From NCBI GenBank assembly GCA_965233625.1, contig OZ247499.1:4884419-4948418 (forward strand): a stretch of 64,000 nt of DNA, read 5' to 3'. This DNA is from Pirellulaceae bacterium. GTDB taxonomy: Bacteria; Planctomycetota; Planctomycetia; Pirellulales; Pirellulaceae. Within the stretch, counting starts at the first letter, position 1. Every line of letters begins with the position of its first letter. The notes below the pieces were generated by a model. It worked only from the letters and a program-made list of their open reading frames with translations. It did no database searches and was not told the DNA's origin. Positions 3,590-55,049 of this stretch are shown one piece after another. The position numbers and the translations under genes are program-made.

Positions 3590-6230
3590 CGCACGCGATG
3601 GCGCTGGAAGCCATGAAGGCAAGTCCGTGAAGACCGCCAGACGCATGCGAACCGTTGTCGAGATGTGGAAGGCGGCCGTCGCCCAGCACCCCGGACGGAC
3701 GGCGGTCGTAGACGGCGCCAGTTCGTTGACCTACTGCGAACTCAACAGCCGCGTGCGTAAATGGGAATCGCGGCTGCGGGCGGTGCGGACGGAGACGGCG
3801 TTCGTCGCTTTGCACTTGCCACACCGGGCAGAGAGCATCGCCGCCCTGCTGGGGATTTTAGCTGCGGGGAGGGCGTTCGTAGCTATCGATCCCGCCACAC
3901 CCGTCACACATCGCTGCGCGCTGCTTGATTATGCGCAGGCACGCGTGGTGATCGGGATGGGAAGTCATGCTGACGAATTACGTGACGCGGGATGGGACGG
4001 CGAATTTATAACCGCAACCGGCGCCGACGCAGTTTCGCCTCAGGAAATGGAAGACGGGGCTTGCGATCTGCAAAGCCGGGCGGCGCTTTGTTTCACGTCC
4101 GGGTCTTCAGGGAATCCCAAAGGTGTGGTGACGCCCCACCGCACGTTTGCTTTTGCCGCGCAAAATCTGCATGCGATGTTCGAGTTCCGGCCGGAGGACC
4201 GGCACGCACTGCTGGCTCCGCTGGCGGTCGCATCAACGCATGCGCAGGTTTTTGCACCGCTGGCCGCAGGGGCGACTATCTGTATGTTGGAGGCGCGCTT
4301 GCACAGTCTCTCTCGTCTGGCCGCCTGGCTTCAGGAGGAAGGCGTCACCACTGTACAGACCGTGCCGTCGCTTGCGCGGGCGCTGTTCAGCGAAGCTGCC
4401 AGCGGCGCCGGCTGGCCAGCAATGCGTGCCTTAAAAACCGGTGGCGAGAGCACGACGATCGCGGATGTGCAACTGTTTGAAAGCGTGCTTCCGGAAGGCG
4501 CCACGCTGATTAACGGGCTGGGAATCACAGAGGCCGGCTGCAATGTGTGCTGGTTCCGCCGGCAGAATGGCTCCAAGCTTGGTGGGCAACTTATGCCCAT
4601 CGGAGTTCCTCCAGATGATATTGAAATTGTCATCGAAAACGCCGAAGGCGCCATCGCTGCCTGCGGAGAGCCTGGGCAGATCGTTGTGCGTTCGCCGATG
4701 TTGCCCACCAGCTATTGGCGCGATCCTGCGAAAACCGCCGCGGTTTATCGTGACCTGCCTGAGCGCGAAGGATGGCGTGAACTTCGTACAGGAGACACCG
4801 GCCGCTGGCGCGATGATGGGCAGCTTGAACATCTGGGCCGGTTGGATCAGACCGTGAATGTGCGAGGACACCGGGTCTGCCTTGTCGAAGTCGAAGCCGC
4901 CCTGAATGACACCGGACTACTATCTGGCGCCGTTGCCTTTACGGAAGATTCCGGCAGCGGAACCCGGTTATGTGCAGCGGTTACCTTCCGGCCCGGCGCA
5001 GAGACGGACGATTCAATTCTGCGGAGCAGGCTGGCGCAGAAGCTGCCCGGCTATATGGTTCCCGCGGTGCTCCAGATTGTTGAACGTCTACCGCGTCTCG
5101 AAAACGGAAAAATCGATCGCAGTCAATTTGCTTCCGGCAACCAATCAGCAGCCGTTGAATTGCCGGCGCCACGCGACGCACTGGAACAGACCTTGCATGG
5201 CCTGTTTAGCCGTGCTCTGCAGAAGAAGCCACTGGCACTGGAAGCTTCCTTCTTTGACGAAGGTGGTGACTCGCTGGTTGCTGCGGCTTTGTTCGCATCG
5301 ATTAAGAGAGTGTTTGACCGCGATCTTCCGCTGACCGATCTGGTGGCGCATCCGTCGGTGAAATCCCTTGCGGAACACATGCGTTCAACCGGAACACAGG
5401 CACACCCGGCCATCACTTTGCTGACACCTTACCCGGAGGAAAATGCGCAGAACATTTTCGTGTGGCCTGGTGCGGGTTCCGACACGTTGGCGCTCTATCC
5501 GCTGGCCCGGAATTTAGGCGCCTCGCACGCAATGTACGGAGTTCAACACCGGGGCGCTGACGGGACACGTCAGTACGATCTGACGGTGGAAGACGCAGCT
5601 TCCCGCGGCGTTCAACTTGTACGCCGCGTCCAGCCACAGGGTCCGTATGCGCTTTGTGGCACATCGTACGGTGGACTTATAGCGCTCGAAGTCGCGCGCA
5701 AATTACAGGTGCAGGGTGAGACCGTCAATTTCCTGGCAATGCTCGATAGCTATTCGCCGGGCTACCCGCGGCGACGCGCCGACCTGGGGTTGCGCGACAG
5801 GCTGGCGCTGTGGAGCCGTAAATTCCGGCCGTTCTCTCAGCGGGATAAACCCGGCCTGGCAGTGCTGCGCAAAGGGTTGCATGAGCAATGGCAGCGTTTT
5901 GTTGCGAGGCGGTTCGTCCAGCGACCAGATCCAGACACGGAGCCGCTGCCGATACCTATCCGGTTCCTCTACTTGCAGGAGGCCTGCTTCATTGCCAGCC
6001 GGGCTTACCGTCCTGCCGACTATCACGGAGAGGTCCACTTCTACACGGTTGCAGAGCCTACGAATACGAGGTTCTTTGAACGTGACGCCGCGCATGGATG
6101 GTCCCAATATCTCAAGGGCGCCCTACATATCGAGACCATTCCCGGCAGGCACTCGCAGCACATTAAAGAGCCACACGTGGCCGCACTCGCGGAGAAACTT
6201 CGCAACCGGCTCAATGAGTTACGGGAGTGA
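3579..6230 (+). CDS. NRPS-like single module: adenylation (AMP-binding) - PCP - thioesterase
   Basis: The adenylation core motifs are FTSGSSGNPKGVV (A3), TGD...GRLDQTVNVRGHRV (A7/A8) and NGKIDR (A10). The PCP carries FFDEGGDSL. The C-terminal alpha/beta-hydrolase TE carries GTSYGG (GxSxG). The start is either the GTG at 3579, overlapping the upstream gene, or the ATG at 3645. Confidence 0.85.
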   Translation: MQRSARDGAGSHEGKSVKTARRMRTVVEMWKAAVAQHPGRTAVVDGASSLTYCELNSRVRKWESRLRAVRTETAFVALHLPHRAESIAALLGILAAGRAFVAIDPATPVTHRCALLDYAQARVVIGMGSHADELRDAGWDGEFITATGADAVSPQEMEDGACDLQSRAALCFTSGSSGNPKGVVTPHRTFAFAAQNLHAMFEFRPEDRHALLAPLAVASTHAQVFAPLAAGATICMLEARLHSLSRLAAWLQEEGVTTVQTVPSLARALFSEAASGAGWPAMRALKTGGESTTIADVQLFESVLPEGATLINGLGITEAGCNVCWFRRQNGSKLGGQLMPIGVPPDDIEIVIENAEGAIAACGEPGQIVVRSPMLPTSYWRDPAKTAAVYRDLPEREGWRELRTGDTGRWRDDGQLEHLGRLDQTVNVRGHRVCLVEVEAALNDTGLLSGAVAFTEDSGSGTRLCAAVTFRPGAETDDSILRSRLAQKLPGYMVPAVLQIVERLPRLENGKIDRSQFASGNQSAAVELPAPRDALEQTLHGLFSRALQKKPLALEASFFDEGGDSLVAAALFASIKRVFDRDLPLTDLVAHPSVKSLAEHMRSTGTQAHPAITLLTPYPEENAQNIFVWPGAGSDTLALYPLARNLGASHAMYGVQHRGADGTRQYDLTVEDAASRGVQLVRRVQPQGPYALCGTSYGGLIALEVARKLQVQGETVNFLAMLDSYSPGYPRRRADLGLRDRLALWSRKFRPFSQRDKPGLAVLRKGLHEQWQRFVARRFVQRPDPDTEPLPIPIRFLYLQEACFIASRAYRPADYHGEVHFYTVAEPTNTRFFERDAAHGWSQYLKGALHIETIPGRHSQHIKEPHVAALAEKLRNRLNELRE

Positions 6231-20161: not shown

Positions 20162-22549
20162 TTAGCTGCGTGTGATGGTTTCGTGCAGATTCAGAATCGC
20201 GCGGGCCAGGGCGGTCCAGGCGGCGAGTTCTGGTTTGGCGATGTCCGCCGGCAATGGCGCCTCGCCGGTCGAAAGCAGCGCGGCTGCGGCGGCTTCATCT
20301 TTGGCGTAACGCTGACGCTGCTGTTTCAGCAGTCCCAACAGAATGTCCGCTTCCGCTTGCGAAGGTGGACGCGATACCGCCCGCAGGAACATCCGCTCGA
20401 TCCGCTCTTTCTCGCTGCTGGCTTCGCGCTTCAAAGCACGTGTAGCGAAGGCGCGGGCCGCTTCGACATAGGCCGGGTCGTTCAACAGCACCAGCGACTG
20501 CGCCGGCGTGTTGCTGCGCGGACGCTCGGCGACGCATTCTTCCCGCGCTGGTGCGTCGAAGGCACGCATCGCCGGATGCCAGAAACTACGCCGCCAATAG
20601 GTATACACGCCCCGGCGGTACAGATCGGCGCCATGATCCTGCACGTACTTGCCATCTTTGTAAAGCTTGTACCAATAGTTGGCCGGTTGATAAGGCTTCA
20701 CGCTGCGGCCGCCCATTTTCTTCGAGAGCAGGCCGCTGATCGCCAGCGCGTTATCGCGGACCAGCTCCGCATCCAGGCGGTAGCGGTTCTGCCGGGCGAA
20801 GAGGCGGTTTTCCGGATCGCGGGCGGCGATCTCCGGCGTGGGGGTCGAACTGCGGCGGTACGTTCCGCTAAGTGCGATCAGCTTCATCATGTGCTTCACG
20901 TCCCAACCGCTTTCCATAAACTCAACGGCCAACCAGTCGAGCAGTTGCGGGTGCGAAGGCCATTCGCCTTGCGAACCGACGTCGTCCAGCGTGCGGGCGA
21001 TGCCCTTGCCCATCATCAGTTTCCACAGCCGGTTCACAAACACGCGGGCCGTCAGCGGATTTTTGCGGCTGGCAATCCAGGCTGCCAGATCCAGCCGCGT
21101 GAGCCGCTCATCGGAATCTTTGCCGCTGCCTAAGAAACCAGGAACGGCGGGCGTAACGACTTCGCCACTGTCGTCCAGCCAGTTGCCACGCGGCAGCACG
21201 CGCATGGTGCGTGGCTTGGTGGTTTCTGTGACCAGTGTTTTGGGCCAAGTCTTGGCGTCCGACGCTTTCTTCAGTTCCGCCTCAAGCTTGGCAAGCTGCT
21301 TGGTCATGGCCTGATGCTGGTCACCGCCCTGCGACGTGTTAGGCAGCTTTTCTTTCAGCGTGGCAATCTCATTTTCCAGCTGTTTCATCTTCGCGATCTG
21401 TTCGCTGGTGGGCATGTGCAACTGCTGCGGATAGCCCACGCCGCGTTCTTTCAGGTCGGCGAAGAATGCGGCGAAGCTGTAGAAGTCGCGTGCGGAAAAT
21501 GGATCGTACTTGTGATCGTGACACTCAGCGCAGCCGAGCGTGGTGCCCAGGAAGATTGCCGATGTATTGCGGACGCGGTCGGCGGCGTAGATGGCCAGAT
21601 ACTCTTTCGGCTGGGCGCCGCCTTCGCTGGTCGTCTGGTTCAGCCGGTTGAAGCCCGATGCGACCTTCCACTTATACTCCTGAAACTTGTCGCCCTTGAG
21701 CATATCGCCTGCCAGTTGTTCTTTGACAAACTGATCGAATGGCAGGTTCTGATTGAAGGCATCAATCACATAGTCGCGGTACAGCCAGACCTCGCGGTGC
21801 GAATCTTTGTGATAGCCCACCGAGTCGGCGTAGCGCACCAGGTCCAGCCAGTACAACGCCATTCGTTCGCCATATTGCGGCGAAGCCAGCAGCCTTTCGA
21901 CAACCCGTTTGTAAGCCGCGGGCGAAGGGTCCGCCACAAAAGCCTCTACCTCATCAGGCGTCGGCGGCAGCCCCGTCAGGTCCAGCGTAACGCGGCGGAT
22001 CAGCGTGCGCGGATTGGCGGCAGGCGCCGGGCGGATGTTCTCCCGCTGAAGACGCTGCAGAATGAAGGCGTCGATATCGCCAATCTTCACACCCGACTCT
22101 GCGGCTGGCTTAACCACGGGCACATCGGGCCGCGCGGGCGGAATAAAGGCCCAATGCCCCTGCCACGGGGCGCCCGCTTCAATCCACCGCCGCAACACAT
22201 CCCGCTGCGCCGGTTTGAGGGAAAGGTGCGATTCCGGCGGCGGCATCAGTTCGTCAGGATCGTCGGAAACGATACGGCGCCAGGCTTCACTATCTTCCAG
22301 CCCGCCGCCAAATGCATCGACAATGCCTTCATGCGTATCAAACCGCATATCGGCTTCGCGCGTACTCTTATCCGGCCCATGACAGCGGAAACAGTTCTGC
22401 GAAAGCAGCGGCCGGATATCACGATTAAACTGCGGCGGCTCAAGCACCTTCTCCGCGGCGCGACAGATATTCAGCGGCAACATGCCCCATGCAAGGACGC
22501 AGACGCCCGCAGAAGCAAGCCGTAATAACGCCACAAAATTCAAATGCAT
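20162..22549 (-). CDS. planctomycete PSCyt1 (cytochrome-c-like) / PSCyt2 (DUF1549) / PSD1 (DUF1553) domain protein, secreted
   Basis: A signal peptide is followed by the N-terminal motif NCFRCHGPDKSTREADMRFD, the characteristic CxxCH-like 'planctomycete cytochrome C' signature. The size (795 aa) and composition are typical of DUF1549/DUF1553 proteins. Confidence 0.8.
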   Translation of the reverse strand: MHLNFVALLRLASAGVCVLAWGMLPLNICRAAEKVLEPPQFNRDIRPLLSQNCFRCHGPDKSTREADMRFDTHEGIVDAFGGGLEDSEAWRRIVSDDPDELMPPPESHLSLKPAQRDVLRRWIEAGAPWQGHWAFIPPARPDVPVVKPAAESGVKIGDIDAFILQRLQRENIRPAPAANPRTLIRRVTLDLTGLPPTPDEVEAFVADPSPAAYKRVVERLLASPQYGERMALYWLDLVRYADSVGYHKDSHREVWLYRDYVIDAFNQNLPFDQFVKEQLAGDMLKGDKFQEYKWKVASGFNRLNQTTSEGGAQPKEYLAIYAADRVRNTSAIFLGTTLGCAECHDHKYDPFSARDFYSFAAFFADLKERGVGYPQQLHMPTSEQIAKMKQLENEIATLKEKLPNTSQGGDQHQAMTKQLAKLEAELKKASDAKTWPKTLVTETTKPRTMRVLPRGNWLDDSGEVVTPAVPGFLGSGKDSDERLTRLDLAAWIASRKNPLTARVFVNRLWKLMMGKGIARTLDDVGSQGEWPSHPQLLDWLAVEFMESGWDVKHMMKLIALSGTYRRSSTPTPEIAARDPENRLFARQNRYRLDAELVRDNALAISGLLSKKMGGRSVKPYQPANYWYKLYKDGKYVQDHGADLYRRGVYTYWRRSFWHPAMRAFDAPAREECVAERPRSNTPAQSLVLLNDPAYVEAARAFATRALKREASSEKERIERMFLRAVSRPPSQAEADILLGLLKQQRQRYAKDEAAAAALLSTGEAPLPADIAKPELAAWTALARAILNLHETITRS

Positions 22550-22745: not shown

Positions 22746-25265
22746 TTACTTTATCTTGACCAGACCGTTGGTTTTCCAGTTGCGACTTGTTTCACTGAAT
22801 ACTGTCTGTTTCTTCTTTGTGAGCTGAGAAACTTCTTGTTTTACGAAACGGCTCAGTTCAACTTCGTCAATGACGGAGTCCGTTTCACCATTGTGGGGGA
22901 TATCACCCTTCCCATCCACAAGCACTTTCAACAGCGCCTCGGTAAACGCGCCGTTCTCCCATTCCTTTTTCTCAATACTCACTTGATTCGAAGCAGACGA
23001 CGCCAATACGAAGGCTCCACAATCTTTCCAGACAACGCGTGGATGGTCGCTGTTGGTCAATTCTGTGATGTCGACCGTTGGCACACGCCCGCCCTGGCGG
23101 ATGACATCTGATGAAAAGCACGCGTCAACGAACAACGCCGTTTTGCACTTCAAAGAGTCGTGTACAACACCAGACAGCGTCGATTGCGGAATGCCTTTAA
23201 TGCGCAACGCTTTGGGATCGGTATCGTGTGCAATCAAGTAGTAAACGCCTGTTTTTTTGTCATGTAATCCGTGCCCTGCAAAGAAGATGATGGCAAGATC
23301 TTTCGCCGTTGTTCTCTGTTCTAGCCAGAATAAACCTTCCAGGATCTTATCTTTGGTTGCGTTCTTGTTTGTCAGCTCTCTGACGAAAACGTCCCGGTAC
23401 AAACCCTTTTCTTTCTGCTCTAGCCAGGCATTGCCGAAATCGCGGGCGTCTTTATGCGCGTAAACCAGGTTTCCGCAATGAGCATGTTCTGATACGCCGA
23501 TCGTAAGCACGTACAAATTGGGGAGCGCTGTTTTCGATCCATCGTCGTAGTCGAATGTTGCCGCTGCCACCTGGCTCTTCGCGCCGTTCGATCCGTAAGC
23601 CGTTGCTTCAAGCTGATTCTTGCCTGGATTCAATTCCAGTTCGCCGGTGTAACGGTTGCTGCCCGCTGCTCTTTGCACGCCTTTGACGATCCGGCCATTA
23701 ATTTTAAACTCAACCCTATCAACGGCCTCAGCCGCTTTAGCGCCAGGAACCGTGGGTAGAATCGCTTCAACTTCCGCCTCGATGACATTGTGTTTAAATA
23801 CTTCGCCGCCGGTGGGTCGTAGGAGCCTGGCGCGCGGAGGTTCGTTGAGCAAATCCTGTTTCGTTCGAGGGCTCGCAGGCATGCGAGGGTCATCGGGTAG
23901 CGGTGTTTCATGTTTATTAACGGTGCTGTGGCGGAGCAGCGCTTTTGTCAGACTACGACGGACAAATAAGTCGTCAACAATTAAAGGTTGCTGCAGTTTT
24001 TGATACTGTGCCGCTTCCAGGAATTCGGCTGCTTCATCGCGGTTGCGATTAATATGCCAACCAATCAATTGATCGCCGCGCGACGACGAATCGAAGTAAC
24101 CTGCGGGCGACCAGATCACCCATTCGTCCTGCCTGGTGTAAACAAAGCTCAATAACGGCTCTACATGTGGCGGTCGCGACGCCAGCGTGACATTTGTCTC
24201 GAACTTCGTTTTATTGTTGCGGATCATGCCTAACCTGACGCGCTGCCCGGGACGATACACGCCGCGCAATTTCCGCGACCGGCTTTCGTAAAAAGAAGTT
24301 CCATCGAAGGTCATGATCCGGTTGGTTTTTACGATGGGAGGCACCGACTTTGCTGCCAGGCTACCTTCGGGCACATCAAGCACCTGGTTCCCGCGGAAAA
24401 GAAAGTCGATGTCTCCCACGGGGGCGACGTAATCTAGATTCCAGATACGGACTGCGCCTTCCGTAGAAGCAGTTGCTAATAGCGAGCCGTTAGGGTTCTG
24501 TGCAATCGACGTAATAAAGTTGCGATGCCCCAGGAATTCCCTCAATACCCGGGCAGAACCCCGGCTATCGATAGCGACGCCCACAAGTTGCCCCGTCAGG
24601 TCGCCAGCGATGTAAATAACCTCGTCTGGTTGCTGCCCCCACTTTGGCTGCTTGGGCAAACGCAAAATCGCCGAGATATAGCCAAGACCTCCTTCGCGAA
24701 CGGCGCCTTCTGGTAATGCACCAACCGCGCTGACGGCTGCGGCGTAATTGATTTTGAAGGGCGAATCAATCGGCCTGTCCTGTGGGCGCAGCTGGCGCAC
24801 ATGTCGCGGGTTTACGACCAGTTCATGGGTTAACCGGCCGTAATCATTCCGCTCCCACTTGTTTCCGTCGCGCTCGACGCCAAACAGCAGCCCGTCACCC
24901 GACGGTGTCCAGGCAACCTTATAAATGCGTTCGACCTCGCTGGTGTCAATTACCCAGATAGGTTCCGCGGTGCGTGTATTCCAGACATGAATACCACCAA
25001 GTTTGTCAACACTGACCGCGCGTTTACCATCGGCGCTTGTCGTCACCACAAGCGGTGTCCAGGCGTGCCCGAAATAGGTGCAGATTTTATTTGTTTCATT
25101 GGGTTCGTGACTGCCGTTCTGGTCCTTCTGGTAAACTTGCACCCAGAACCGTGTGCCGGCGGGATTTGCCCGCGTGGAACCACCACGAGCCAGATAACTG
25201 GAACCCGGACCGCTTCGATCCGTGGGAGGCATGTACCACCAGGCCGTTTTGAACACACCGTTCAC
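22746..25265 (-). CDS. WD40-repeat / caspase-like (peptidase C14) domain protein; appears to be the distal part of a gene interrupted by an in-frame stop
   Basis: WD40-like repeats are visible (GHRNFITSIAQNPNGSLLATASTEGAVRIWNL). The C-terminal caspase fold reads LYVLTIGVSEH...DLAIIFFAGHGLHDKKTGVYYLIAHD...TALFVDACFS, giving a His-Cys dyad in the GHG and DAC contexts. The first start is the GTG at 25265, with no ATG for 260 nt downstream of the stop at 25527. Confidence 0.7.
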   Translation of the reverse strand: MNGVFKTAWWYMPPTDRSGPGSSYLARGGSTRANPAGTRFWVQVYQKDQNGSHEPNETNKICTYFGHAWTPLVVTTSADGKRAVSVDKLGGIHVWNTRTAEPIWVIDTSEVERIYKVAWTPSGDGLLFGVERDGNKWERNDYGRLTHELVVNPRHVRQLRPQDRPIDSPFKINYAAAVSAVGALPEGAVREGGLGYISAILRLPKQPKWGQQPDEVIYIAGDLTGQLVGVAIDSRGSARVLREFLGHRNFITSIAQNPNGSLLATASTEGAVRIWNLDYVAPVGDIDFLFRGNQVLDVPEGSLAAKSVPPIVKTNRIMTFDGTSFYESRSRKLRGVYRPGQRVRLGMIRNNKTKFETNVTLASRPPHVEPLLSFVYTRQDEWVIWSPAGYFDSSSRGDQLIGWHINRNRDEAAEFLEAAQYQKLQQPLIVDDLFVRRSLTKALLRHSTVNKHETPLPDDPRMPASPRTKQDLLNEPPRARLLRPTGGEVFKHNVIEAEVEAILPTVPGAKAAEAVDRVEFKINGRIVKGVQRAAGSNRYTGELELNPGKNQLEATAYGSNGAKSQVAAATFDYDDGSKTALPNLYVLTIGVSEHAHCGNLVYAHKDARDFGNAWLEQKEKGLYRDVFVRELTNKNATKDKILEGLFWLEQRTTAKDLAIIFFAGHGLHDKKTGVYYLIAHDTDPKALRIKGIPQSTLSGVVHDSLKCKTALFVDACFSSDVIRQGGRVPTVDITELTNSDHPRVVWKDCGAFVLASSASNQVSIEKKEWENGAFTEALLKVLVDGKGDIPHNGETDSVIDEVELSRFVKQEVSQLTKKKQTVFSETSRNWKTNGLVKIK

Positions 25266-25526
25266 ATGTGGCGGCGGGTAGACCGTATCAAAGTTTTCGC
25301 GGGTCCGGATGATGCGGGCCTGTTCGCGATGATCAATCTTCTTGCCAGTTTTTACGTTGATGATAACGCGGCGTTGCGCAAGGTCGGCGAGAATGTGATC
25401 GTTGTCGATGAAGCCAAAGAAGTCAGAAATGTTCTGGTTCTTGAACTGTTCGTCCGGGTCACGGTAATAAGTCTGTGTCGTTTCTTTGCTTGCGATAGGC
25501 CAAGACTTGACCTGAATTCGACCGCC

Positions 25527-26009
25527 TCAGCCATAGCTCGCGATCCATTTACCATCGGGTGAAAACGCTAAGCGATCGGCGCAACCAATATGGCCTGGAA
25601 GAAGTTCCTCAATCTTCGAGAGATCACGTAGCGCGTACTTGCGTATTGAACCCGCAAATGTGTTATCGCTAACACCCACATACAAATACTTGCTGTCGGG
25701 CGAGAACCGGACTGCGTTGGTACGCCCTAATTTCAGGTAAGGCGCCAGTTGAAAACCCCGGAGCCGGCCAAGCAATGTTTTGTTATTAACATCCCAGACC
25801 CGCACTTCTTTATCACCAGCAACGGCCAGCAGGCTGCCATCACCATTAAGGGCGCAGTCGCGGATACTTCCGCTAGCGAAGCTGCCACTTCTCACAACCA
25901 GAAATGGGTTGTCTTCGGCAGATGCCGTTGAAGATGTGAATGTTTGCAGGACCACGACAGCTACCACTGTCCAGCCTGCAACTAGTTTGTACATCTCAAA
26001 ATGTCGCAT
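25527..26009 (-). CDS. N-terminal fragment: signal peptide plus WD40 repeats; same frame as 22746..25265, separated from it by a single TGA
   Basis: The signal peptide MYKLVAGWTVVAVVVLQTFTSSTASA precedes a WD40 unit, LAVAGDKEVRVWDVNNKTLLGRLRG. The stop TGA (revcomp of 25527-25529) is in frame with 87 downstream sense codons that lead into the GTG at 25265. Confidence 0.6.
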   Translation of the reverse strand: MRHFEMYKLVAGWTVVAVVVLQTFTSSTASAEDNPFLVVRSGSFASGSIRDCALNGDGSLLAVAGDKEVRVWDVNNKTLLGRLRGFQLAPYLKLGRTNAVRFSPDSKYLYVGVSDNTFAGSIRKYALRDLSKIEELLPGHIGCADRLAFSPDGKWIASYG

Positions 26010-26194
26010 GAAATTTCCCGCAACTGCTAACCCGGCACTTCTGGGGAGGCGTAAGACCCCTTGCCGGATGATTTTACTTGGATGCGTGAGGCGCTTCAAT
26101 AAAGGAGGCACTTGCTCTACATCCGTAAATCAATTTGTCAGCGGACAAATTTCAATCCAAAAACGTAAGTAACCGTCGCACGCAGTTTACTCGA

Positions 26195-27460
26195 CTACAA
26201 CTCGTCGGCGCCGGTGAAGTTTGTTACCAGCGCGCGGAGCTTGCGGCGGAGGACGGTGTAGCTGAAGAAGTTGCGGCTTAGCTCGTAGTTGCGGTTGACC
26301 ATCTCTTCGCGGTATTGCTCATCGTTGATCACGCGGCGTACGGCTTCTACGGTTTCGCGGGTGAGATAGCCATCCATCGGGACCACTTGAAAGCCCCGTG
26401 GTTCGATATCGGCGATGTAAATCGAATAGCGGTTTACGAGCACGGGTTTGCGGTAATAGAACGCCTCAAGCAGCGCGTTGCCGAAGCCTTCGTAGAGGCT
26501 GGGGTAGGTGATAAAGTCGGCCACGGCGTAAGCATCGCCCAGCGTATAGACGCGGCGGCCATCTTCGCGGACGCCGCGTTTTTCGTTCACCTGTTCATCA
26601 ATAAATCGCAGGTCCACGTTCTGCCGCTCCGCCATCTCGATCAGCGCGTTGCAGTACTCGTACCCCTCATCGCCGGATGCGTGCGAGATGACCAGTTTGC
26701 AGCGTGGGTCTTTCAGTTCACCCATCAGGTTGATCGAGTGTTCGATGCCTTTGCGCGGCACGACGCGGGTCGGTTGCAGGAACATGATATCGTCGTCCGT
26801 CAGTCCGATATCGCGCCGCAGCGTGGAGGTGTAATCATCCGGCTCTGGCGGTGTGCGTTCAAAATTCAGCACATTCGGCACCAGGATCGAAGACACGCCG
26901 CAACGGTGCGAAAGGTCTTCCTGCGCGAATGAATTGATCGTGACGTGCTGGATTGATGGCAGATCGGGCGGAAACGCCATCGACAGAAAATCGCCTGCCG
27001 AGTTCACCGCAAAGCGATCGCGTTCCCAGTAGAAGTCGTGATGGTGGGCGATTGTCGGGAAGCCGGTCTCCGCAATGAAGTTGGTCAGCGCCACGCCCAA
27101 CGGGATATTCATGGGAATCGTCAACGCGTTCTGAACAATCAGAATGTTGATATCGAACTTCTGGACAAACTTCTGCAGCATGTACTTCAGATGCTCAGCC
27201 AGCGAATACACCAGCCGCGTGACGTTCGGATCGCGCTGCCGCGAGCCGAAGACGTGCCGGTTGATGAAGGCGATGTTCTCGCTGCCGAAGTATGCGGTTG
27301 GCGCCAGCATGCTGATGTCCGGATCGGTATCCAGCACTCCGGCAAACCAGAAGCTGCGGTGCTTATGATCCCAGAGAACTTCCGCCCATTTCGCACTTTC
27401 GAGTGAGACGCCATCCGTGCCGGCGAAACGGGTGGAAACAAAGCCGATGTTCTGTCCCAT
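26195..27460 (-). CDS. GT4-family glycosyltransferase (sugar-phosphate synthase-like)
   Basis: The protein is 421 aa with a C-terminal GT-B donor-binding region, [24 protein letters not shown] (an E-x7-E-like motif). It is the last gene of a three-gene minus-strand operon. Confidence 0.7.
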
Positions 27461-35489: not shown

Positions 35490-36760
<1,271 letters not shown>

Positions 36761-40147: not shown

Positions 40148-40410
40148 CCAGAAACTGCACCTTCATCTGATCGCCGGTTGGTCGCTCGCTTGCCAGCACT
40201 GCGCGCAGGTTGTTCCGTTATTGCGGCAAATTCGGCTTCTTACCACCAGGAACCATTACAGCGGTTAGGCCTGTTGCGCCGATAGAGAACAAACAACAGG
40301 CGCCTGGAGGTTCTACCTCTGCGCCTGTGTAAACCGTGGGGCATTTGCAAATACATGGCTCTGGCTGTCCGGCAGCGAGGGTCCAATACGCCAGACTGAA
40401 GGTTCAACCT

Positions 40411-41367
40411 ATGCGCATCTTGCCAGGCTGCTTTAGCGCGGCTGGATTCGTCATTCTTGGTTTATCGGCCGCGTTGCTGCATGCACAGCCAGCATCGCCC
40501 GGAGCCGCCGGAGCCAAGATCGAACCGCCCGTCATCACGGCGCTGGCGGTGCAGAGCGGCGGCCCGCTAACGGCGACCGCGGGCGACGATCACTTTGTGC
40601 GTATCTTTAATTCAGAAACGGGCGAACTGGTGCACCGCTTGGCGTCGCACACCGGATGGGTCCGTGCGGTAGCTTTCAGCCCCGATGGCAGCCTGCTCGC
40701 CTCTGGCGGAAACGATCGCCGGTTGCTGCTCTGGCGCCCGACCAACGGCCAGCTGCTGCAGGAAATTGCCGCCCATCGCGGCGCGGTGACGGCCATTGCT
40801 TTCGATCCCCGTGGCGGCAAGGTCGCCGCTGCCGGTTTTGAAGACAAACTGCGGATCTACGACACAACCACCGCCCGGCTGGTGCACGAAGTGGATTGCC
40901 CCTGCAAAGATATCCGCGCCCTGGAATATTCGCCCGATGGCAAAATCATCGCGATTGGCGGACGCGACGGGAAGATTCATCTCTACGATAGCAGCACCGG
41001 AAAAATCCTGCGAAGTGTGGCGGTTCACACCCGCCGCGTGCGGGCCATCAGCTTTGCTCCCGACGGCGCCAGCATCGTCTCGACCGGCGAAGATCGTGCG
41101 GTCCGCGTCACCCCTGTGGCAGACGGCCCTGCCCGCACGCTGCCCCGTCAGAGTGCCAAGATCATGTCACTCTGCTACCTGCCCGGTAACCGTGTAGCAC
41201 TGGGCGGAAGCGACAATGTGGTGCGTGTCTGGGATATCGCCGCCGGCCGGCAGACTCAGAAGCTTGAAGGCCACACGGGAAGCGTTACCGCACTGAAGCA
41301 CAAAGACGGCATCCTGTATTCAGGCGCCTACGATACAACCCTGCGAACCTGGCGTGTCGCTCCTTAA
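40411..41367 (+). CDS. secreted WD40-repeat (beta-propeller) protein
   Basis: A signal peptide, MRILPGCFSAAGFVILGLSAALLHA, is followed by seven or more WD-like units (e.g. GHTGWVRAVAFSPDGSLLASGGNDRRLLLW). Confidence 0.75.
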   Translation: MRILPGCFSAAGFVILGLSAALLHAQPASPGAAGAKIEPPVITALAVQSGGPLTATAGDDHFVRIFNSETGELVHRLASHTGWVRAVAFSPDGSLLASGGNDRRLLLWRPTNGQLLQEIAAHRGAVTAIAFDPRGGKVAAAGFEDKLRIYDTTTARLVHEVDCPCKDIRALEYSPDGKIIAIGGRDGKIHLYDSSTGKILRSVAVHTRRVRAISFAPDGASIVSTGEDRAVRVTPVADGPARTLPRQSAKIMSLCYLPGNRVALGGSDNVVRVWDIAAGRQTQKLEGHTGSVTALKHKDGILYSGAYDTTLRTWRVAP

Positions 41368-41461
41368 GAGCAGCATCCGCCGTTAGCACCGCACACAAGA
41401 AGAACAGCACAGACCTGGTAGGCAGGACGCTTACCGTTTGATTATCGCATGGAGGCGACAG

Positions 41462-44400
41462 ATGAGCTGGCTCCGCAAAATTACACGGAAACTCTGGAAG
41501 AAGCCGGCAGGCAACGCCTGCTGCGATTCCAACGCCAACTCCACCGGGCGCGTCTGCGGGTTCGAAGAGATGGAACCGCGGCGGATGCTGGACGCAGACC
41601 CCATTCAGATCGGCGCCGTGTTCCTGGAAACAGACGACGGCGCCGACACACAGGCCGATGTCTTCGAGATCAGCTTTGAAGGCGGCGCCGCCGGGACGCA
41701 GCTGAAAGAGGTTTATATTGACCTGGATCAGACACCCGGTGGAACGCCCGGTATCTTGCAGGCGCCTGATCTGTTCTTCGACACGGCTGATACTGGTTTT
41801 GGCAGCCGCGAAGCGCATGCGTTTCAGGTCGTTAACGGCGCTGGTGACGGCATCGACAGCGTGCAGGCCGAAGTCGTCGACGGCACCTCGCAGTTGAAGC
41901 TGACGTTCGAAGGCTTCGACGCGGGTGAGAAATTCGTCTTCAGCATCGACGTCGATCACGCCAACCGCACGTTTATCAACGACAACTTCGACCTGCTCAA
42001 TACGGGCAACCCCAACGACCTGACGGCGGCTGAACTTTCCTACATCAACGACAACTCATTTGACTCGCTGGCGTCTGGGCGTGAGTTCGCCACGTCGCAG
42101 TTCCACGCTACCTTCGTGGCGCCCGGCTTTGCCGAGACAACCGGCATGGGCCGTTATGCCGACGATTACAACTTCAACGGAACCACGTTGCAGTTGACCG
42201 GCGATAGCGACACCAACCAGCCCAACCGCACCGACGGTGTGCACTTTCAGCTGGAGCAGGAAGAACTGCCCGTCACTATCAGCGGCCGCGTGTTCCACGA
42301 CCGCGACTTCAACCTGGTGCAGGACGGAACCGGCGCAGATGAAGATCACGGCATCGCCGGCGTTGAGCTATCTCTGCTGAAGCTGAACGAAACCACCAAC
42401 CAGTACGAAGACACCGGCCACACCGCCACCACCGACATCAACGGCGACTATCTGTTCGGCGAAGACCTGGGCCTGGGCTCTGGTACTTACAGTGTGGTCG
42501 AAACACAGCCGGGCGATTATCCGTACAGCGTGGGCGCCATTCCCGGTACGGTTGAAGGCGCCACGTCCGGCGTTGTGGGGCCGTTTGATAACAACGTGAT
42601 CGAACAGATCGTCATCCCGCTGGGCGGACAGGATTCGATCAACAACGATTTTGCCGAAGCCAAGCCGGTTGAGATCAGCGGCTTCGTCTATCACGACCGC
42701 AACGATAACGGCATCCGCGAAACGGGCGAAGAAGGTATCGAAGGCGTCACCATCCGCCTGCTGCCTATCAACACGGTTTCGCTGGAAACGCCGCGCGAGA
42801 TGCAGACCGGCGCCGATGGTTCTTACTCGTTTGAAGGTCTGGCCCCCGGCGAGTACGAAGTTTACGAGATCCAGCAGCCAACCGGTTACATCGACGGTAA
42901 AGACACCGCTGGCAAAATCGGATCGGACACAGTTGGCGTTGCTGGCAACGAACAGATCACCGAGATTTTCCTGCCCAGCGATTCTAAGGGTGTGGAATAC
43001 AATTTCGGTGAGATTCAGGAAGCACGCATCAGCGGCAACGTGCACCTTTCGACGCCCGAAGGCGAATGCTTTGAAGATAACCCCAGCACGCCTTACGTGC
43101 CTATTCCAGGCGTCCGGGTTGAGCTGACAAACCTTGACACCAATGAAGTCCGCCACACGTTTACCGATCAGAACGGCGATTACTCGTTCGACGGTCTGCC
43201 GCCGGGCAACTACAAGGTGGTTGAATTCACGCCGGCAGATGTGCTGGATGGCGGCGCCCGCGTCGGCGAAACGCCTGGTCCTGGCGATGGCATCCTGGAC
43301 CCGGCCGATCCTTCCAACATCATCACCAACATCACGCTAGAGCCCGGCGCCGTCGCCGTAAACTACGACTTCTGCGAGCATCTACCCGCCGAGATTGCCG
43401 GTAATGTCTACCACGACCGCAACAACAACGGCCTGCGTGAAACGGGTGAAGAAGGTATCGGCGGCGTCACCATTATTCTCCGCGACGCTGCGACCGGCGA
43501 CTTCATTTCCGACACCACCACGGAAACTGATGGCTCGTATAAGTTCGAGGGGTTAACCCGCGGCGATTACACGCTCGAAGAAGTGCACCCCACTGCCTAC
43601 ACGGACGGCAAAGATACGGCTGGCACCGTCGGCGGCACGACGCACGGCGTGGCGACGAATGATCTAATCAGCGACGTCCATCTCGACTTCGGCGAGGCGG
43701 GCATCGAGTACAACTTTGGCGAACGTCTGCTGGCGGAAATCAGCGGTAACGTCCACCTCTCGACACCCGATGGCGACTGCTTCGAAGATCTGCCGCAGGG
43801 CGAAGAATACCGCCCCATTGAAGGCGTGCTGATCCGGCTGATCAACGAAGACACCGGCGCCGAGATTACGCAGCTGACGGACTCTGAGGGCAACTACTCT
43901 TTCAAAGATCTTGACCCCGGCACTTACACCGTTGTCGAAACGACGCCGACGGGCTTGATCAACGGCGGGGCACGTGTTGGCGAAACACTGGGCGACGCCG
44001 ACGGCGTGCTCGACGCGCTGCGGCCGGGCGATGCGATCACCAGCATCGAACTAGAGCCCGGCGCCGTTGCCGTGAACTACGACTTCTGCGAGCACGAACC
44101 GGCTTCGATCAGCGGTCACGTGTACCACGATGCCAACAACGATGGCCTGTTCGACAAGATCAACGAAGATCCCATCCCAGGCGTCCGTGTGATTCTTCGC
44201 GATGGCAATGGCAACTTCATTGCTGAACGCACGACCGAAACCGACGGCAGCTACAGCTTTGAAGGCCTGGAAAAAGGCGAGTACATCCTCGAAGAAATTC
44301 ATCCCAATGCCTGGATCGATGGTAAAGACACCATCGGTACGGTCGACGCCATTCCTAACGGCTTTGCTGGCGATGATGAGTTCCTGGCCATCAATCTGCT

Positions 44401-47191
44401 CTACGGCGATGAAGGCGTTGAGTACAACTTTGGCGAACGGCTGCTCGGATCGCTCCGCGGTAATGTGCATCTATCCGACGGTCTGGGCGACTGTTTTGAT
44501 GACAACGTCATCTATCAGCCACTTCCCGGTGTTACCGTTCAGCTGATCGATCAGGCGACCGGAAACATCATCCGCACGACCACGACCGACAATCAGGGCG
44601 ACTACGAATTCGTTGACCTGGAAGCCGGCACCTACACGATTGTCGAAATCACACCGGCCCACCTGCTCGATGGCGGCGCCCGCGTAGGCAACATCGATAA
44701 CGTGGATGTGGGCGTGCTGGAGAACCCCAGCCGGATCAGCACCATCGTGCTGGACCACGGTGAAAACGGTGAAGATTACGACTTCTGCGAACACGAACCG
44801 GCCACCATCTCTGGCTTCGTCTATCACGATCGTGATAACGATGGCCTGAAAGAGACGGGCGAAGAAGGCATCAAAGACGCCATCGTGATTCTCCGCGATT
44901 CGGCGGGCACCGAAATAGACCGGCAGACGACCGGCGATAATGGCGAATACAGCTTCACCGGCCTGAAAGCAGGCGAGTACACACTCGAAGAAATTCAGCC
45001 TTCGGCCTATCTGGATGGCAAGGACACCACCGGCCAGATCGGCGGCAGCGACGTGGGCGTAGCTGGCAACGATGTGATCCAGCAGATTGTTCTGCCCGGC
45101 GGCTCTGACGGCGTGAACTATAACTTCGGCGAACTGCTACCGGCCAGCATCGAAGGTTACGTGCATTCGGACCCGGATCTGAACTGCATCTTCGATATCG
45201 ATGAAGACCCGATCGCAGGCGTGACAATTATTCTCCGCGATGCGAACACCGGCGACATCCTTGCCGATACGGTCACCGACGCCAACGGTCACTATAAGTT
45301 CGACAACCTCGGACCCGGCGAATTCACCATCGAGGAAATTCAGCCCGTAGATTACTTCCAGGGCGGTCAGGTTGTAGGTGTGACCGGCAACGGCGACGCG
45401 ACGGTCGACAACTTCCTGTCGTCCATCACGATCCAGTCGGGCGATGCTCTGGAGAATTACAACTTCTGCGAGATTCCTGCCGGCCGGATCTCTGGCTTCG
45501 TCTTTGTGGACGGCGCCCCGATTCTGACCGACACCGGCGCCCCGCCGAGCGACCTCACCGGCATCCGCGATGGCGTGCTGACCAACGACGATACCCGCAT
45601 CCAGGGCGTAACGCTGGAACTGCGTAACGGTATCACTGGCGACGTGATCAACGGCGAAGACCTGTTGCCCGGCGCCTACCCGAACGGCCCCGTGCAGACT
45701 CAGACCGACGCCAACGGCTTCTACGAGTTCACCGGGCTGCCGCCTGGCAGCTACGCCGTGTACGAAATTCAGCCGGTGCAGTACTTCGACGGTATCGATA
45801 CGCCGGGCACCACTTCCGGCATTGCCGTGAACCCGAATCAACCGCGTTCGGCAGCGGAACAACAATCTATCTTCCTGCTCTCGGAAGATCCTGGCGACGA
45901 CGCGATTATCCGCATCGCTCTGGGAATCGGCGACTCGTCCGAACTGAACAACTTCAGCGAGATCGAGACCACGGTCGGACCGCCGCCGCCGCCGCCACCT
46001 CCACCACCGCCACCACCACCACCGCCTCCACCACCACCGCCGCCACCGGGCACACCGCCCGATGTGCCGCAGGCGCCAACGGCTGCCACTCCGCCGTCGT
46101 CCGTGCTTGCTGTGGCAGGGGGAACCACCGTTTCGACCGTTCGCACCACTGGCGGGTTTGAGTTCAAACCTTACAGCTGGCACCTGAGCGTGATTAACGC
46201 AGGCACCCCGCGTGGTAACGGAGTAGAACTTGCAGAAACCGACACCTTCCAGCAGGCGGGGCACATCAGCCGCGATCGCTGGCAGGCGGAAGACCTGCAA
46301 GGCGGTTCGTTTGAACTGGTCACCGGCTACAACGATCCCGGCAGCCGCGAATTCTCAGAGAAACTGTTTGGCCTCGAAGGCGCCATTCCGGTTTCCGGAG
46401 ACTTCAACGGCGACGGAACCGATGAAGTTGGCGTCTTCCTCAACGGCGAGTGGTTCATTGATATCAATGGCAACGGACGTTGGGACTCAGAAGACCTATG
46501 GGCCAGCCTCGGCGGCGATAAGGACATACCTGTCACCGGCGACTGGGATGGCGATGGCAAAGACGACATCGGTATCTTCGGGCCGCAGTGGTCGGGCGAT
46601 CCGCACGCTATCGAACGCGAACCCGGTCTGCCCGATGCAGACAACGAGCGCAAGATGGTGGACCTCCGCGACGAACTGCTGCGGCGCAAGAACATGCCGC
46701 CACAGCGCGAAGACGCCACCAACGGCCACCGCGTGATGCAGCGTACGCCGGAAGGACGCGTACGGGCCGACGTTATCGACCACGTCTTCCGTTACGGTGA
46801 ACGGCACGATATGCCCGTGGCCGGTGACTGGAACGGCGACGGTATCCGCGACATCGGTATGTTCCGCGATGGCGTGTGGTATCTGGATGTCGATGGCGAC
46901 GGACGCATCAGCTACGCCGACAAACGGATCGAGTTCGGCGCCGCTGGCGACGTGCCTGTAACCGGCGACTGGAACGGCGACGGCATCGAAGATATCGGCG
47001 TCTACCGCAACGGCGTCTGGCATCTGGATGTCAACGGCAACCACGAGCTGGAAGCGGTCGATCGCGTGTTCGAGATGGGCGGCGCCGGCGATACGCCCAT
47101 CACCGGTGACTGGGACGGCGACGGTGTCGACGAACCAGGCATCTACCGCCACGGTCAACACCTGCGGCAAGCCCGTCGCGACGCCAGCTAA
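41462..47191 (+). CDS. giant secreted adhesin-like protein: ~10 SdrD-B/CnaB-like domains in tandem, a poly-Pro linker, and C-terminal FG-GAP/VCBS-like repeats
   Basis: The ATG at 41462 is preceded by 'ggagg'. The N-terminus carries FEEMEPRRMLDADP. Two alternating domain types are seen: ISGFVYHDRNDNGIRETGEEGIEGVTIRLL...GSYSFEGLAPGEY, and ISGNVHLSTPEGECFED...GVRVELTNLDT...GDYSFDGLPPGNY. A run of about 23 consecutive Pro follows. Then come five GDWNGDGxxDIGxF repeats. Confidence 0.85.
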   Translation: MSWLRKITRKLWKKPAGNACCDSNANSTGRVCGFEEMEPRRMLDADPIQIGAVFLETDDGADTQADVFEISFEGGAAGTQLKEVYIDLDQTPGGTPGILQAPDLFFDTADTGFGSREAHAFQVVNGAGDGIDSVQAEVVDGTSQLKLTFEGFDAGEKFVFSIDVDHANRTFINDNFDLLNTGNPNDLTAAELSYINDNSFDSLASGREFATSQFHATFVAPGFAETTGMGRYADDYNFNGTTLQLTGDSDTNQPNRTDGVHFQLEQEELPVTISGRVFHDRDFNLVQDGTGADEDHGIAGVELSLLKLNETTNQYEDTGHTATTDINGDYLFGEDLGLGSGTYSVVETQPGDYPYSVGAIPGTVEGATSGVVGPFDNNVIEQIVIPLGGQDSINNDFAEAKPVEISGFVYHDRNDNGIRETGEEGIEGVTIRLLPINTVSLETPREMQTGADGSYSFEGLAPGEYEVYEIQQPTGYIDGKDTAGKIGSDTVGVAGNEQITEIFLPSDSKGVEYNFGEIQEARISGNVHLSTPEGECFEDNPSTPYVPIPGVRVELTNLDTNEVRHTFTDQNGDYSFDGLPPGNYKVVEFTPADVLDGGARVGETPGPGDGILDPADPSNIITNITLEPGAVAVNYDFCEHLPAEIAGNVYHDRNNNGLRETGEEGIGGVTIILRDAATGDFISDTTTETDGSYKFEGLTRGDYTLEEVHPTAYTDGKDTAGTVGGTTHGVATNDLISDVHLDFGEAGIEYNFGERLLAEISGNVHLSTPDGDCFEDLPQGEEYRPIEGVLIRLINEDTGAEITQLTDSEGNYSFKDLDPGTYTVVETTPTGLINGGARVGETLGDADGVLDALRPGDAITSIELEPGAVAVNYDFCEHEPASISGHVYHDANNDGLFDKINEDPIPGVRVILRDGNGNFIAERTTETDGSYSFEGLEKGEYILEEIHPNAWIDGKDTIGTVDAIPNGFAGDDEFLAINLLYGDEGVEYNFGERLLGSLRGNVHLSDGLGDCFDDNVIYQPLPGVTVQLIDQATGNIIRTTTTDNQGDYEFVDLEAGTYTIVEITPAHLLDGGARVGNIDNVDVGVLENPSRISTIVLDHGENGEDYDFCEHEPATISGFVYHDRDNDGLKETGEEGIKDAIVILRDSAGTEIDRQTTGDNGEYSFTGLKAGEYTLEEIQPSAYLDGKDTTGQIGGSDVGVAGNDVIQQIVLPGGSDGVNYNFGELLPASIEGYVHSDPDLNCIFDIDEDPIAGVTIILRDANTGDILADTVTDANGHYKFDNLGPGEFTIEEIQPVDYFQGGQVVGVTGNGDATVDNFLSSITIQSGDALENYNFCEIPAGRISGFVFVDGAPILTDTGAPPSDLTGIRDGVLTNDDTRIQGVTLELRNGITGDVINGEDLLPGAYPNGPVQTQTDANGFYEFTGLPPGSYAVYEIQPVQYFDGIDTPGTTSGIAVNPNQPRSAAEQQSIFLLSEDPGDDAIIRIALGIGDSSELNNFSEIETTVGPPPPPPPPPPPPPPPPPPPPPPPGTPPDVPQAPTAATPPSSVLAVAGGTTVSTVRTTGGFEFKPYSWHLSVINAGTPRGNGVELAETDTFQQAGHISRDRWQAEDLQGGSFELVTGYNDPGSREFSEKLFGLEGAIPVSGDFNGDGTDEVGVFLNGEWFIDINGNGRWDSEDLWASLGGDKDIPVTGDWDGDGKDDIGIFGPQWSGDPHAIEREPGLPDADNERKMVDLRDELLRRKNMPPQREDATNGHRVMQRTPEGRVRADVIDHVFRYGERHDMPVAGDWNGDGIRDIGMFRDGVWYLDVDGDGRISYADKRIEFGAAGDVPVTGDWNGDGIEDIGVYRNGVWHLDVNGNHELEAVDRVFEMGGAGDTPITGDWDGDGVDEPGIYRHGQHLRQARRDAS
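42250..45500 (+). repeat. in-frame tandem coding repeats, period ~715 bp (pairs of CnaB-like domains), 4-5 units
   Basis: The recurring peptide 'E(I/P)(A/S)(E/S)ISG(F/N/H)VYHD(R/A)N(D/N)NG' starts near 42661, 43381, 44098 and 44803. Confidence 0.6.
45979..46047 (+). repeat. poly-proline codon tract (ccg/cca/cct)n
   Basis: The DNA reads ccgccgccgccgccacctccaccaccgccaccaccaccaccgcctccaccaccaccgccgccaccg, which encodes the continuous Pro run of about 23 residues. Confidence 0.85.
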
Positions 47192-50647: not shown

Positions 50648-51227
50648 CGTTATGTTCCTATGGCGCCTAGCGGTGGGTCGCCCGTATTTCGCGGTATGGC
50701 TGCCGCCCTGCCCGGTAAGGGAGCTTTACGAATCGAAGACGGCGGACTGCTGAAATCTACGACACAGAATCCGCGCCGTCCAACCAAACTGCTGCGTTCT
50801 ACCGCAGTGCTTGTTTTGAAGCATTTTCGCCGCACGATGGGCTGCAAAATGTGGAGTTTCTGCATCAAATCTTCGCGTTGAAACCAGCAATGAAGCGTTT
50901 CGTAGGCTTCGCCAGCAGTGGCGCGCTGTTTGCCTGTAGATCAGTGCCCCGGCTGATTGCTGCGGCATACGTCGCCGGTTCAAAAAATCCACCGCCGGGC
51001 TGGAATAATCGCTGCGAACAGAGCCTTCCGTAAAACCCGCTCAGATATCACACGGACGGGGAAACTAACACGTTCCCACGTCAACTTCCTGCAATTACTA
51101 TCGGTACGGACACCCGCAGAATTCGTCGAACGCAAAACGTCCGCAGACCATCACATTGTGGACACTCCGACACTATTTTCATTCGCCTCTTAACCGGTCG
51201 AAGCTGCCGGCTAGTCAATATCCTGCC

Positions 51228-55001: not shown

Positions 55002-55049
55002 ATCGCAGCATGTCTGTAAGCTTTCCCACTGCTTTCAACCAGAACAACT

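Follow-up and report, generated by a model that had tools for sequence, protein, structure and literature searches.

Organization of the WD40-Caspase Gene

The stretch analysed here (the window) comprises 64,000 nucleotides of contig OZ247499.1 (positions 4,884,419 to 4,948,418, assembly GCA_965233625.1) from a Pirellulaceae bacterium, and contains on its minus strand a gene for a WD40-caspase protein interrupted by an in-frame TGA, which is examined here as a candidate selenocysteine (Sec) codon. When translated, the minus-strand frame 26111..22746 contains a single stop (TGA, 25529-25527) ahead of its closing TAA (22748-22746), in agreement with an earlier note on this DNA, according to which a single in-frame TGA divides a signal-peptide/WD40 open reading frame (ORF) from a WD40/caspase ORF. 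The upstream ORF (ATG 26009) codes for a signal-peptide-like N-terminus and WD40 repeats, and the downstream part for WD40 repeats and a Peptidase_C14 domain, so that the domain order of the fused product is signal peptide, WD40 β-propeller region, middle domains and caspase-like C14 domain. The residues across the internal TGA are ...LAFSPDGKWIASYG*GGRIQVKSWPIASK..., and the signal-peptide-like segment reads MRHFEMYKLVAGWTVVAVVVLQTFTSSTASA. The features on which the following sections rely first are:

22746..26009, minus strand: whole gene, a 1087-codon ORF with one internal UGA, from ATG 26009 to TAA 22748-22746 (translation, Pfam, collinear full-length alignments)
25917..26009, minus strand: signal-peptide-like N-terminus, residues 1-31, with a charged start, a hydrophobic core and an ASA motif ahead of ED, read directly from the translation
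25527..25529, minus strand: UGA codon 161, proposed Sec codon (TGA in 11/11 loci, aligned to Cys in 23 representatives)
25266..25526, minus strand: the 87 codons that separate the UGA from the earliest possible in-frame start, coding for the rest of the WD40 blade and a conserved EQF...SD[YF]FGF motif

The product from ATG 26009 has 1087 aa; the approximately 1120 aa given previously are reached only with an unlikely GTG start at 26111. Past the TGA the window gene has 926 open codons, the first in-frame start being GTG 25265, and all 87 codons in between are open, as had been noted before. The source genome is publicly annotated with two proteins at this locus, P0310 (160 aa) and P0121 (828 aa), on a contig of 7,813,638 bp. 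Two-gene calls were found in all the public annotations examined for loci of the TGA type, with the upstream fragments labelled hypothetical proteins by NCBI. The fused window protein aligns collinearly and over its full length with P0125, an uninterrupted homologue of 1085 aa, and likewise with the TGA-type homologues.

Conservation of the Internal TGA

A 399-aa query covering the junction region drew generic WD40 proteins and missed the true orthologues, which were recovered by a C-terminal query, a full HMMER scan and a clade profile. With the downstream part as query, homologues of about 32% identity were obtained whose predicted products start just past the equivalent position (MIRSW... 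compared with RIQVKSW in the window), and the contigs of these homologues carry directly upstream, in the same frame, a WD40 ORF of 150-160 aa, with one TGA between the two parts (FASYG-TGA-DG[EQ]IVIRSW). Eleven loci of this type with available DNA were compared, namely the window, L001, L004, L005, L007, L087, L088, L089, L090, L091 and L092, of which L007 was found by genome scan, L087 and L088 by way of HMMER representatives, and L089, L090, L091 and L092 by clade-profile search. The sources are metagenome-assembled genomes labelled Planctomycetaceae (L007) and Pirellulaceae (L089), and otherwise unlabelled metagenome assemblies. Two scans of JGI metagenome contigs, one with the protein profile and one with a TGA-plus-hairpin DNA motif, gave zero matches.

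The homologous codon is TGA in all 11 loci, and TAA or TAG in none. The other ten loci were assembled independently, and their proteins are only about 37% identical to that of the window; the proportion of synonymous differences (pS) at sites flanking the TGA is near saturation (about 0.75). A codon conserved for termination alone would have drifted among TGA, TAA and TAG, so that it is the UGA itself, and not merely a stop, that has been retained. In the four loci added last, the reading frame past the TGA stays open for 912-962 more codons or until the end of the contig. The clade-profile search gave 26 distinct clusters at 90% identity, with products of 124-193 aa all terminating at the same ...[YWF]G residue, the shared ending being ...GHxxC[STA]DRxxFSxDGxxxx[YWF]G. 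The sequencing error and the recent nonsense mutation (pseudogene) that had been considered for the window in the earlier note are ruled out, because the TGA is kept in all 11 independently assembled loci and the products of 26 clusters end there; purifying selection downstream of the TGA (see below) likewise speaks against both. The comparison of orthologues proposed at the same time revealed no sense codon among the TGA-type loci, and a Cys codon in a sister clade.

A Hairpin of the SECIS Type

A search for a hairpin resembling a selenocysteine insertion sequence (SECIS) 3′ of the TGA, as suggested earlier, revealed such an element, with compensatory changes among the loci:

25492..25525, minus strand: bacterial SECIS-like element, with an apical 7-bp stem (25513-25507/25503-25497), a GUC triloop (25506-25504) and a 5-bp lower stem (25525-25521/25496-25492)

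In published work, the bacterial SECIS (bSECIS) is modelled with an apical loop of 3-9 nt whose first or second nucleotide is G (in most cases with G or U after it), an upper stem of 4-16 bp, a spacing of 16-37 nt between the UGA and the loop, and a minimum free energy (MFE) of −7.5 kcal/mol or lower (PMC13188914). The window element satisfies all four constraints, with its GUC loop, 7-bp stem, spacing of 20 nt (the hairpin begins 13 nt past the UGA) and MFE of −11 kcal/mol. All 11 loci fit the published constraints, with energies of −7.8 to −16.3 kcal/mol. When the geometry was defined on the homologues and scanned in the window, it was found after a single TGA (25529) out of 1850 such triplets, with 0.24 matches expected per shuffled window.

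Numbered from the U of the UGA, positions 17-23 pair with 27-33 in the window and seven homologous loci, and the triloop is GUC (once GUU). In a seven-locus alignment of the 7-bp stem, standard pairs are formed in 49 of 49 cells; when the 3′ partner was slid by 1-3 columns, 16-43% of the cells were paired. Compensatory double changes occur in three of the seven pairs, and pair 17-33 is seen as U-A, C-G, A-U and U-G. The observed covariation score was reached by none of 500 column shuffles, and RNAalifold independently yielded the same helix. Paired substitutions specific to the window lineage are A17-U33, G19-C31 and A23-U27, and L092 shows the same geometry as the seven-locus alignment. In the three loci that diverge most, the hairpin lies in a shifted register:

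L089, 4478-4520: 9-bp stem with a GUC loop
L091, 1858-1900: 8-bp stem with a GGUC loop
L090, 4469-4510: 11-bp stem with a GAUUGG loop

The loops of these three lie 21-26 nt from the UGA and the hairpins are built from different codons, which suggests that the SECIS stem turns over while the constraint on the loop stays the same. Synonymous divergence is 0.30 in the 11 hairpin-bearing codons (codons 1-11 past the TGA) versus 0.75 further downstream, and this lowered value points to constraint at the RNA level.

Coding Constraint Downstream of the TGA

In six TGA-type loci, the ratio of nonsynonymous to synonymous differences (pN/pS) was 0.34 for codons 12-45 past the TGA versus 0.36 for the 60 codons preceding it, and the protein conservation of the post-TGA stretch is ungapped across the loci. 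The first in-frame ATG, GTG or TTG past the TGA is at codon 5 in four loci, codon 46 in two and codon 88 in the window, and the codon-5 candidates fall within the hairpin stem. Neither a conserved start codon nor a conserved Shine-Dalgarno motif was found past the TGA across the compared loci, a Shine-Dalgarno-like motif being present in L001 only. As the candidate positions vary, gene callers pick a different start from locus to locus. The earlier note had named two separate genes with a well-supported downstream start as evidence that would speak against a single gene; two genes are indeed annotated everywhere, but the agreement is superficial, the starts being locus-specific and none of them conserved. 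Its statement that the downstream part lacks a signal peptide and first starts at a GTG holds. Since no start is shared, the TGA lies inside a WD40 blade and the fused protein is collinear with P0125, a fixed two-gene arrangement is unlikely.

Cysteine Homologues, Partner Cysteine and Phylogeny

An exhaustive HMMER search gave 23 full-length representatives, each standing for a 50%-identity cluster, in which the site aligned with the TGA is Cys within the motif ...AT[YW]GC[DG]G. Alignment of a TGA with a conserved Cys is the basis of SECIS-independent selenoprotein searches (PMC1088965; PMC12013277). A second, partner Cys lies 18 residues upstream (GHxGC...) in 23/23 Cys-type representatives and is invariant in 26/26 TGA-type upstream ORFs. 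In the window it is:

25581..25583, minus strand: Cys143 (TGC), partner cysteine 18 residues ahead of the proposed Sec codon, at the R1-2 position by sequence, where strand a begins in the WD40 blade that also holds that codon

All the other family members have neither of the two, with Pro, Gly or His at the first site and Ser, Glu, Val, Ala, Asp or Thr at the second. There were zero mixed cases: Cys or TGA at one position always goes with Cys at the other. In a neighbour-joining tree the TGA-type sequences form one clade, with the window copy basal, which is sister to the Cys-type clade, and the Cys-less relatives stand apart from both.

WD40 Fold and Caspase-Like Domain

WD40 repeats of the product matched Pfam PF00400 with 53.8 and 35.9 bits (cut-off 27). 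In the AlphaFold model of the Cys-type homologue P0168 (predicted local distance difference test, pLDDT, 91; predicted template modelling score, pTM, 0.91), Cys139 lies within strand a (138-145) and Cys157 right after strand b (151-156) of the same blade, the two strands being adjacent and antiparallel; judging from these strand boundaries, the two would face each other through the register of the a-b hairpin. The TGA maps to the junction of strand b with strand c in a single WD40 blade. The N-terminus of the model, homologous to the signal-peptide-like segment of the window protein, is a low-confidence helix preceding the propeller, and the best matches of the model in a Foldseek comparison with the PDB were generic WD40 propellers only. 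In WD40 nomenclature, the proposed Sec161 occupies D-1, in the b-c turn, the residue ahead of the Asp of the DHSW tetrad (ASYG-U-[DG]G...SW), and Cys143 occupies R1-2; both are positions of the top face that are commonly ligand-contacting hotspots (PMC3419727).

The C-terminal part carries a predicted protease domain:

22803..23507, minus strand: caspase-like Peptidase_C14 domain (PF00656, E = 6e-13, 49.5 bits, cut-off 21.4)
23273-23271 and 23120-23118, minus strand: predicted catalytic caspase dyad, His913 (in FAGHG) and Cys964 (in VDAC)

Each of His913, Gly914 and Cys964 is at least 90% conserved over 50 family members. NCBIfam model NF047832 (caspase_w_EACC1) scored 82 bits, under its 140-bit cut-off, and PADLOC returned a generic caspase model and no other defence-system match. 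The association with cell death or defence made in the earlier note finds no backing here, since the protein has a signal peptide and no nucleoside triphosphatase (NTPase) module, and the generic caspase model was the sole PADLOC result.

Proposed Decoding and Alternative Explanations

Very probably, window positions 26009-22746 constitute one gene for an exported WD40-caspase selenoprotein of 1087 residues, in which UGA 161 is a Sec codon accompanied by a SECIS. On comparison of the sequences, conservation extends to the UGA, the hairpin, coding constraint on both sides, the Cys of the sister clade and the invariant partner Cys. By the standard bacterial mechanism, codon 161 (25529-25527) would be decoded as Sec, the hairpin acting as a bacterial SECIS that recruits SelB-GTP-Sec-tRNA(Sec) to the ribosome at the UGA; translation would then run through the remaining 926 codons, and the product would be exported via its signal peptide. 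Sec161 and Cys143, which would face one another at the ligand-binding top side of a single blade, could form a redox-active selenenylsulfide, and the corresponding pair of the Cys-type relatives a disulfide. The pair is most likely, if speculatively, a reactive or redox-switch site on the propeller, controlling either the capture of substrates or how active the C-terminal His/Cys caspase-like protease is; that it is specifically a selenium redox switch or covalent-capture site controlling an extracytoplasmic caspase-like protease is a tentative proposal, and rather doubtful. Readthrough or recoding had been listed among the options for this gene before, and gains support from the SECIS-type hairpin with its compensatory changes and from the sister-clade Cys at the site. 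Sec was then regarded as unexpected at this position; given the hairpin immediately 3′ of the TGA and the Cys that the sister clade has at this site, it has become the favoured form of recoding.

Several observations weigh against the selenoprotein proposal. No selA, selB, selD or tRNA-Sec gene was found in the 64-kb window or the fetched loci (tRNA-Sec was searched in the window and 15 loci, and selA, selB and selD were sought by Pfam annotation of 30 window genes). The WD40-caspase gene (22746-26111) has a GC content of about 0.52 and a GC content at third codon positions (GC3) of 0.51-0.58, compared with a GC3 of about 0.70 in nearly all its neighbours and a GC content of 0.59 in the whole window; the low GC3 suggests horizontal acquisition or unusual codon usage, and horizontal acquisition would also make a non-functional copy in this host possible. 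The primary sequence has no classical CxxU or UxxC motif, and to our knowledge WD40 domains are not among the known redox folds. In the tree, the Cys pair and the switch from Cys to Sec each appear to be one evolutionary event, so that the co-occurrence of the two residues reflects retention and not repeated independent origin. The energy of folding in 60 nt was no better than that of shuffled sequences (z about 0), and the support for the hairpin is therefore covariation, not stability. Rfam cmscan of 25300-25700 at permissive E-values gave no SECIS family and only chance snoRNA-like matches, which is weak evidence in either direction, bacterial SECIS elements being too diverse for one model (PMC13188914). 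In favour of Sec decoding, complete Sec-insertion gene sets occur in some Planctomycetes (PMC4807772).

Genome-wide reassignment of UGA (genetic codes 4 and 25) was rejected, TGA being a normal terminator here. It ends 5 of about 33 likely genes in the window, as well as the orthologue in L092, so any recoding must be local; no other long gene interrupted by TGA was found in the window.

Among the alternatives, recoding without selenium survives best and is still improbable. In this explanation the UGA is read by a standard tRNA (Trp, Cys or Arg) with the hairpin as a readthrough stimulator, and a selenium-free full-length protein results. This would account for the conservation of both the UGA and the 3′ hairpin, for the open frame and for purifying selection past the UGA, and the Sec machinery is not needed, in keeping with its lack among the genes of the window and the fetched loci. 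Against it, the site aligns with the invariant Cys of the sister clade and the partner Cys is kept, which is the signature by which selenoproteins are recognized (PMC1088965), and the hairpin matches the SelB-type consensus in its loop (G, then U or G) and in its spacing.

Slightly less probable again is a split gene, in which a 160-aa signal-peptide/WD40 fragment and a separate downstream product, made by termination and reinitiation, co-assemble into one propeller. The split point is conserved and every public annotation calls two genes, but the downstream starts differ (codon 5, 46 or 88, depending on the locus), with the Shine-Dalgarno-like motif limited to L001, and a product begun at one of them would lack the conserved residues that lie ahead of it, past the TGA. 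The break would moreover fall inside a WD40 blade, between strands b and c, the downstream part would have no signal peptide of its own, and no TGA in particular would be needed, yet TGA is present in all 11 loci.

It is also quite unlikely that the gene is a relic, that is, a member of a true selenoprotein family in a host that has lost Sec decoding or has acquired the gene without it, so that only the 160-aa fragment is made. The atypical GC3 (0.51-0.58 versus about 0.70) fits horizontal acquisition, and within the TGA-type clade the window copy has diverged furthest, but a gene long unexpressed should decay, and this one has kept 926 open codons, lineage-specific paired substitutions in its hairpin and an intact His/Cys dyad.

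The default reading of a single genome with a lone in-frame stop in an otherwise intact long ORF, a recent nonsense mutation or a sequencing or assembly error at 25527-25529, is the least credible explanation of all, given the identical TGA in ten other independently assembled loci at about 37% protein identity to the window, the 26 clusters of truncated upstream products ending at the same residue and a constraint downstream that equals that upstream. A pseudogene in general was rejected on the 926 open codons past the TGA, the downstream pN/pS of 0.34 and the stop common to all 11 loci.

Genomic Context

Six loci of the TGA type have, as their immediate upstream neighbour, a gene for a protein with an FGE-sulfatase domain, which is often joined to Sel1 repeats, a protein kinase domain or a weak match to Peptidase_C14:

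L001, 3123-5051: FGE-sulfatase-domain gene
L004, 3479-5395: FGE-sulfatase-domain gene
L005, 2843-4792: FGE-sulfatase-domain gene
L087, 179-2245: FGE-sulfatase-domain gene
L088, 424-2266: FGE-sulfatase-domain gene
L090, 2026-3969: FGE-sulfatase-domain gene

In L088, whose contig name is tagged '4x', this FGE-sulfatase/caspase gene appears as two overlapping ORFs (424-1152 and 1109-2266), compared with a single ORF in the other loci; the split is probably a frameshift error, unlike the clean, conserved TGA next door. Several further caspase-domain genes and a DUF4384 gene occur in L001 to L003. The window copy has no FGE-sulfatase neighbour; its upstream neighbour is a group-1 glycosyltransferase gene (26195-27460), and downstream of it lies a gene for a protein of 795 aa (20162-22549, minus strand) with a signal peptide at the start and a CxxCH-type motif (CFRCHGPD), which appears to resemble the planctomycete PSCyt/PSD-type proteins.

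Elsewhere in the window, an NRPS-like gene (adenylation, carrier and thioesterase domains; 3579-6230) and a two-gene polyketide synthase module (51156-60326; DH, FkbM methyltransferase and ACP, then KS, AT, KR, ACP and TE) point to secondary-metabolite loci. An IS110-family transposase gene (DEDD_Tnp_IS110 and Transposase_20; 35526-36683) is flanked by a sulfite/nitrite reductase gene and a floA gene. A separate gene for a canonical WD40 propeller of 343 aa (40336-41367) is followed by one for a protein of 1917 aa with SdrD B-like, CarboxypepD_reg and SpaA repeats (41438-47191).

Comparison with Known Systems and Significance

The arrangement resembles that of bacterial selenoprotein genes with an intragenic SECIS, such as E. 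coli fdhF, which is decoded by SelB: an in-frame UGA is followed by a hairpin in the coding region with a small apical loop starting with G and then U, the spacing, stem and energy are within the consensus, and Cys homologues exist. The apical loop of fdhF contains GGUC; the loop of L091 is GGUC, and those of eight other loci are GUC or GUU. The host protein differs in being a WD40 propeller with a caspase-like protease, and not an oxidoreductase or thioredoxin-fold protein; it has no UxxC or CxxU motif, and its partner Cys is 18 residues off on the neighbouring strand; dependence on SelB would here follow by analogy. The recoding signal is thus most likely that of the standard bacterial Sec system, in a host fold and at a Sec position that are unusual.

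Among Planctomycetota, Cys-type and Cys-less WD40-caspase homologues (P0168, P0125) have the same domain order, are collinear at about 1070-1140 aa and keep the caspase His, Gly and Cys. The Cys-type proteins have Cys where the window has UGA, and the Cys-less ones have Ser, Glu, Val, Ala, Asp or Thr there and no partner Cys. The cytoplasmic caspase/NACHT/WD40 proteins of filamentous bacteria, of the STAND type (signal transduction ATPases with numerous domains), similarly combine a C14 protease and WD40 repeats in one polypeptide; unlike these, the window protein has a signal peptide and no NTPase domain.

Nearly all known selenoproteins are oxidoreductases or have thioredoxin-like folds. A catalogue of 119 prokaryotic selenoprotein families has no WD40, β-propeller, peptidase C14 or caspase entry in its table of families (Zhang et al. 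2026, Table 1; PMC13188914), and its marks of high confidence, namely a conserved TGA, a bSECIS and Sec/Cys homologues, are all found here. The papers on BSepDB and deep-Sep likewise use none of these four terms in their main texts, and NCBIfam release 20 (June 2026) contains no matching selenoprotein model. The gene most likely belongs to a selenoprotein family not described before and mis-annotated in databases as two genes. In the genomes and metagenomes examined it appears under two entries for unrelated hypothetical proteins, one of about 155 aa and the other of about 830-950 aa, and recognition of the Sec codon would correct at least 26 clusters.

A candidate family is thereby added to the prokaryotic selenoproteome from Planctomycetota, a phylum apparently little represented in the selenoprotein literature. 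Sec at the WD40 hotspot D-1, with a cross-strand Cys partner in an exported caspase-like protein, is an unusual setting for selenium, and the GU-containing loop, which stays constant while the stem changes and shifts register, is a useful example for SECIS search methods. The three natural states of the pair (Sec/Cys, Cys/Cys and neither) allow the idea of a redox-gated protease or sensor, and that of a change from Cys to Sec in a single clade, to be tested. If the proposal is true, WD40 scaffolds would gain their first selenoprotein and bacterial caspase-family proteases their first link to selenium; in one clade of Planctomycetota, a cross-strand disulfide of the ancestor would have given way, as an upgrade, to a selenenylsulfide.

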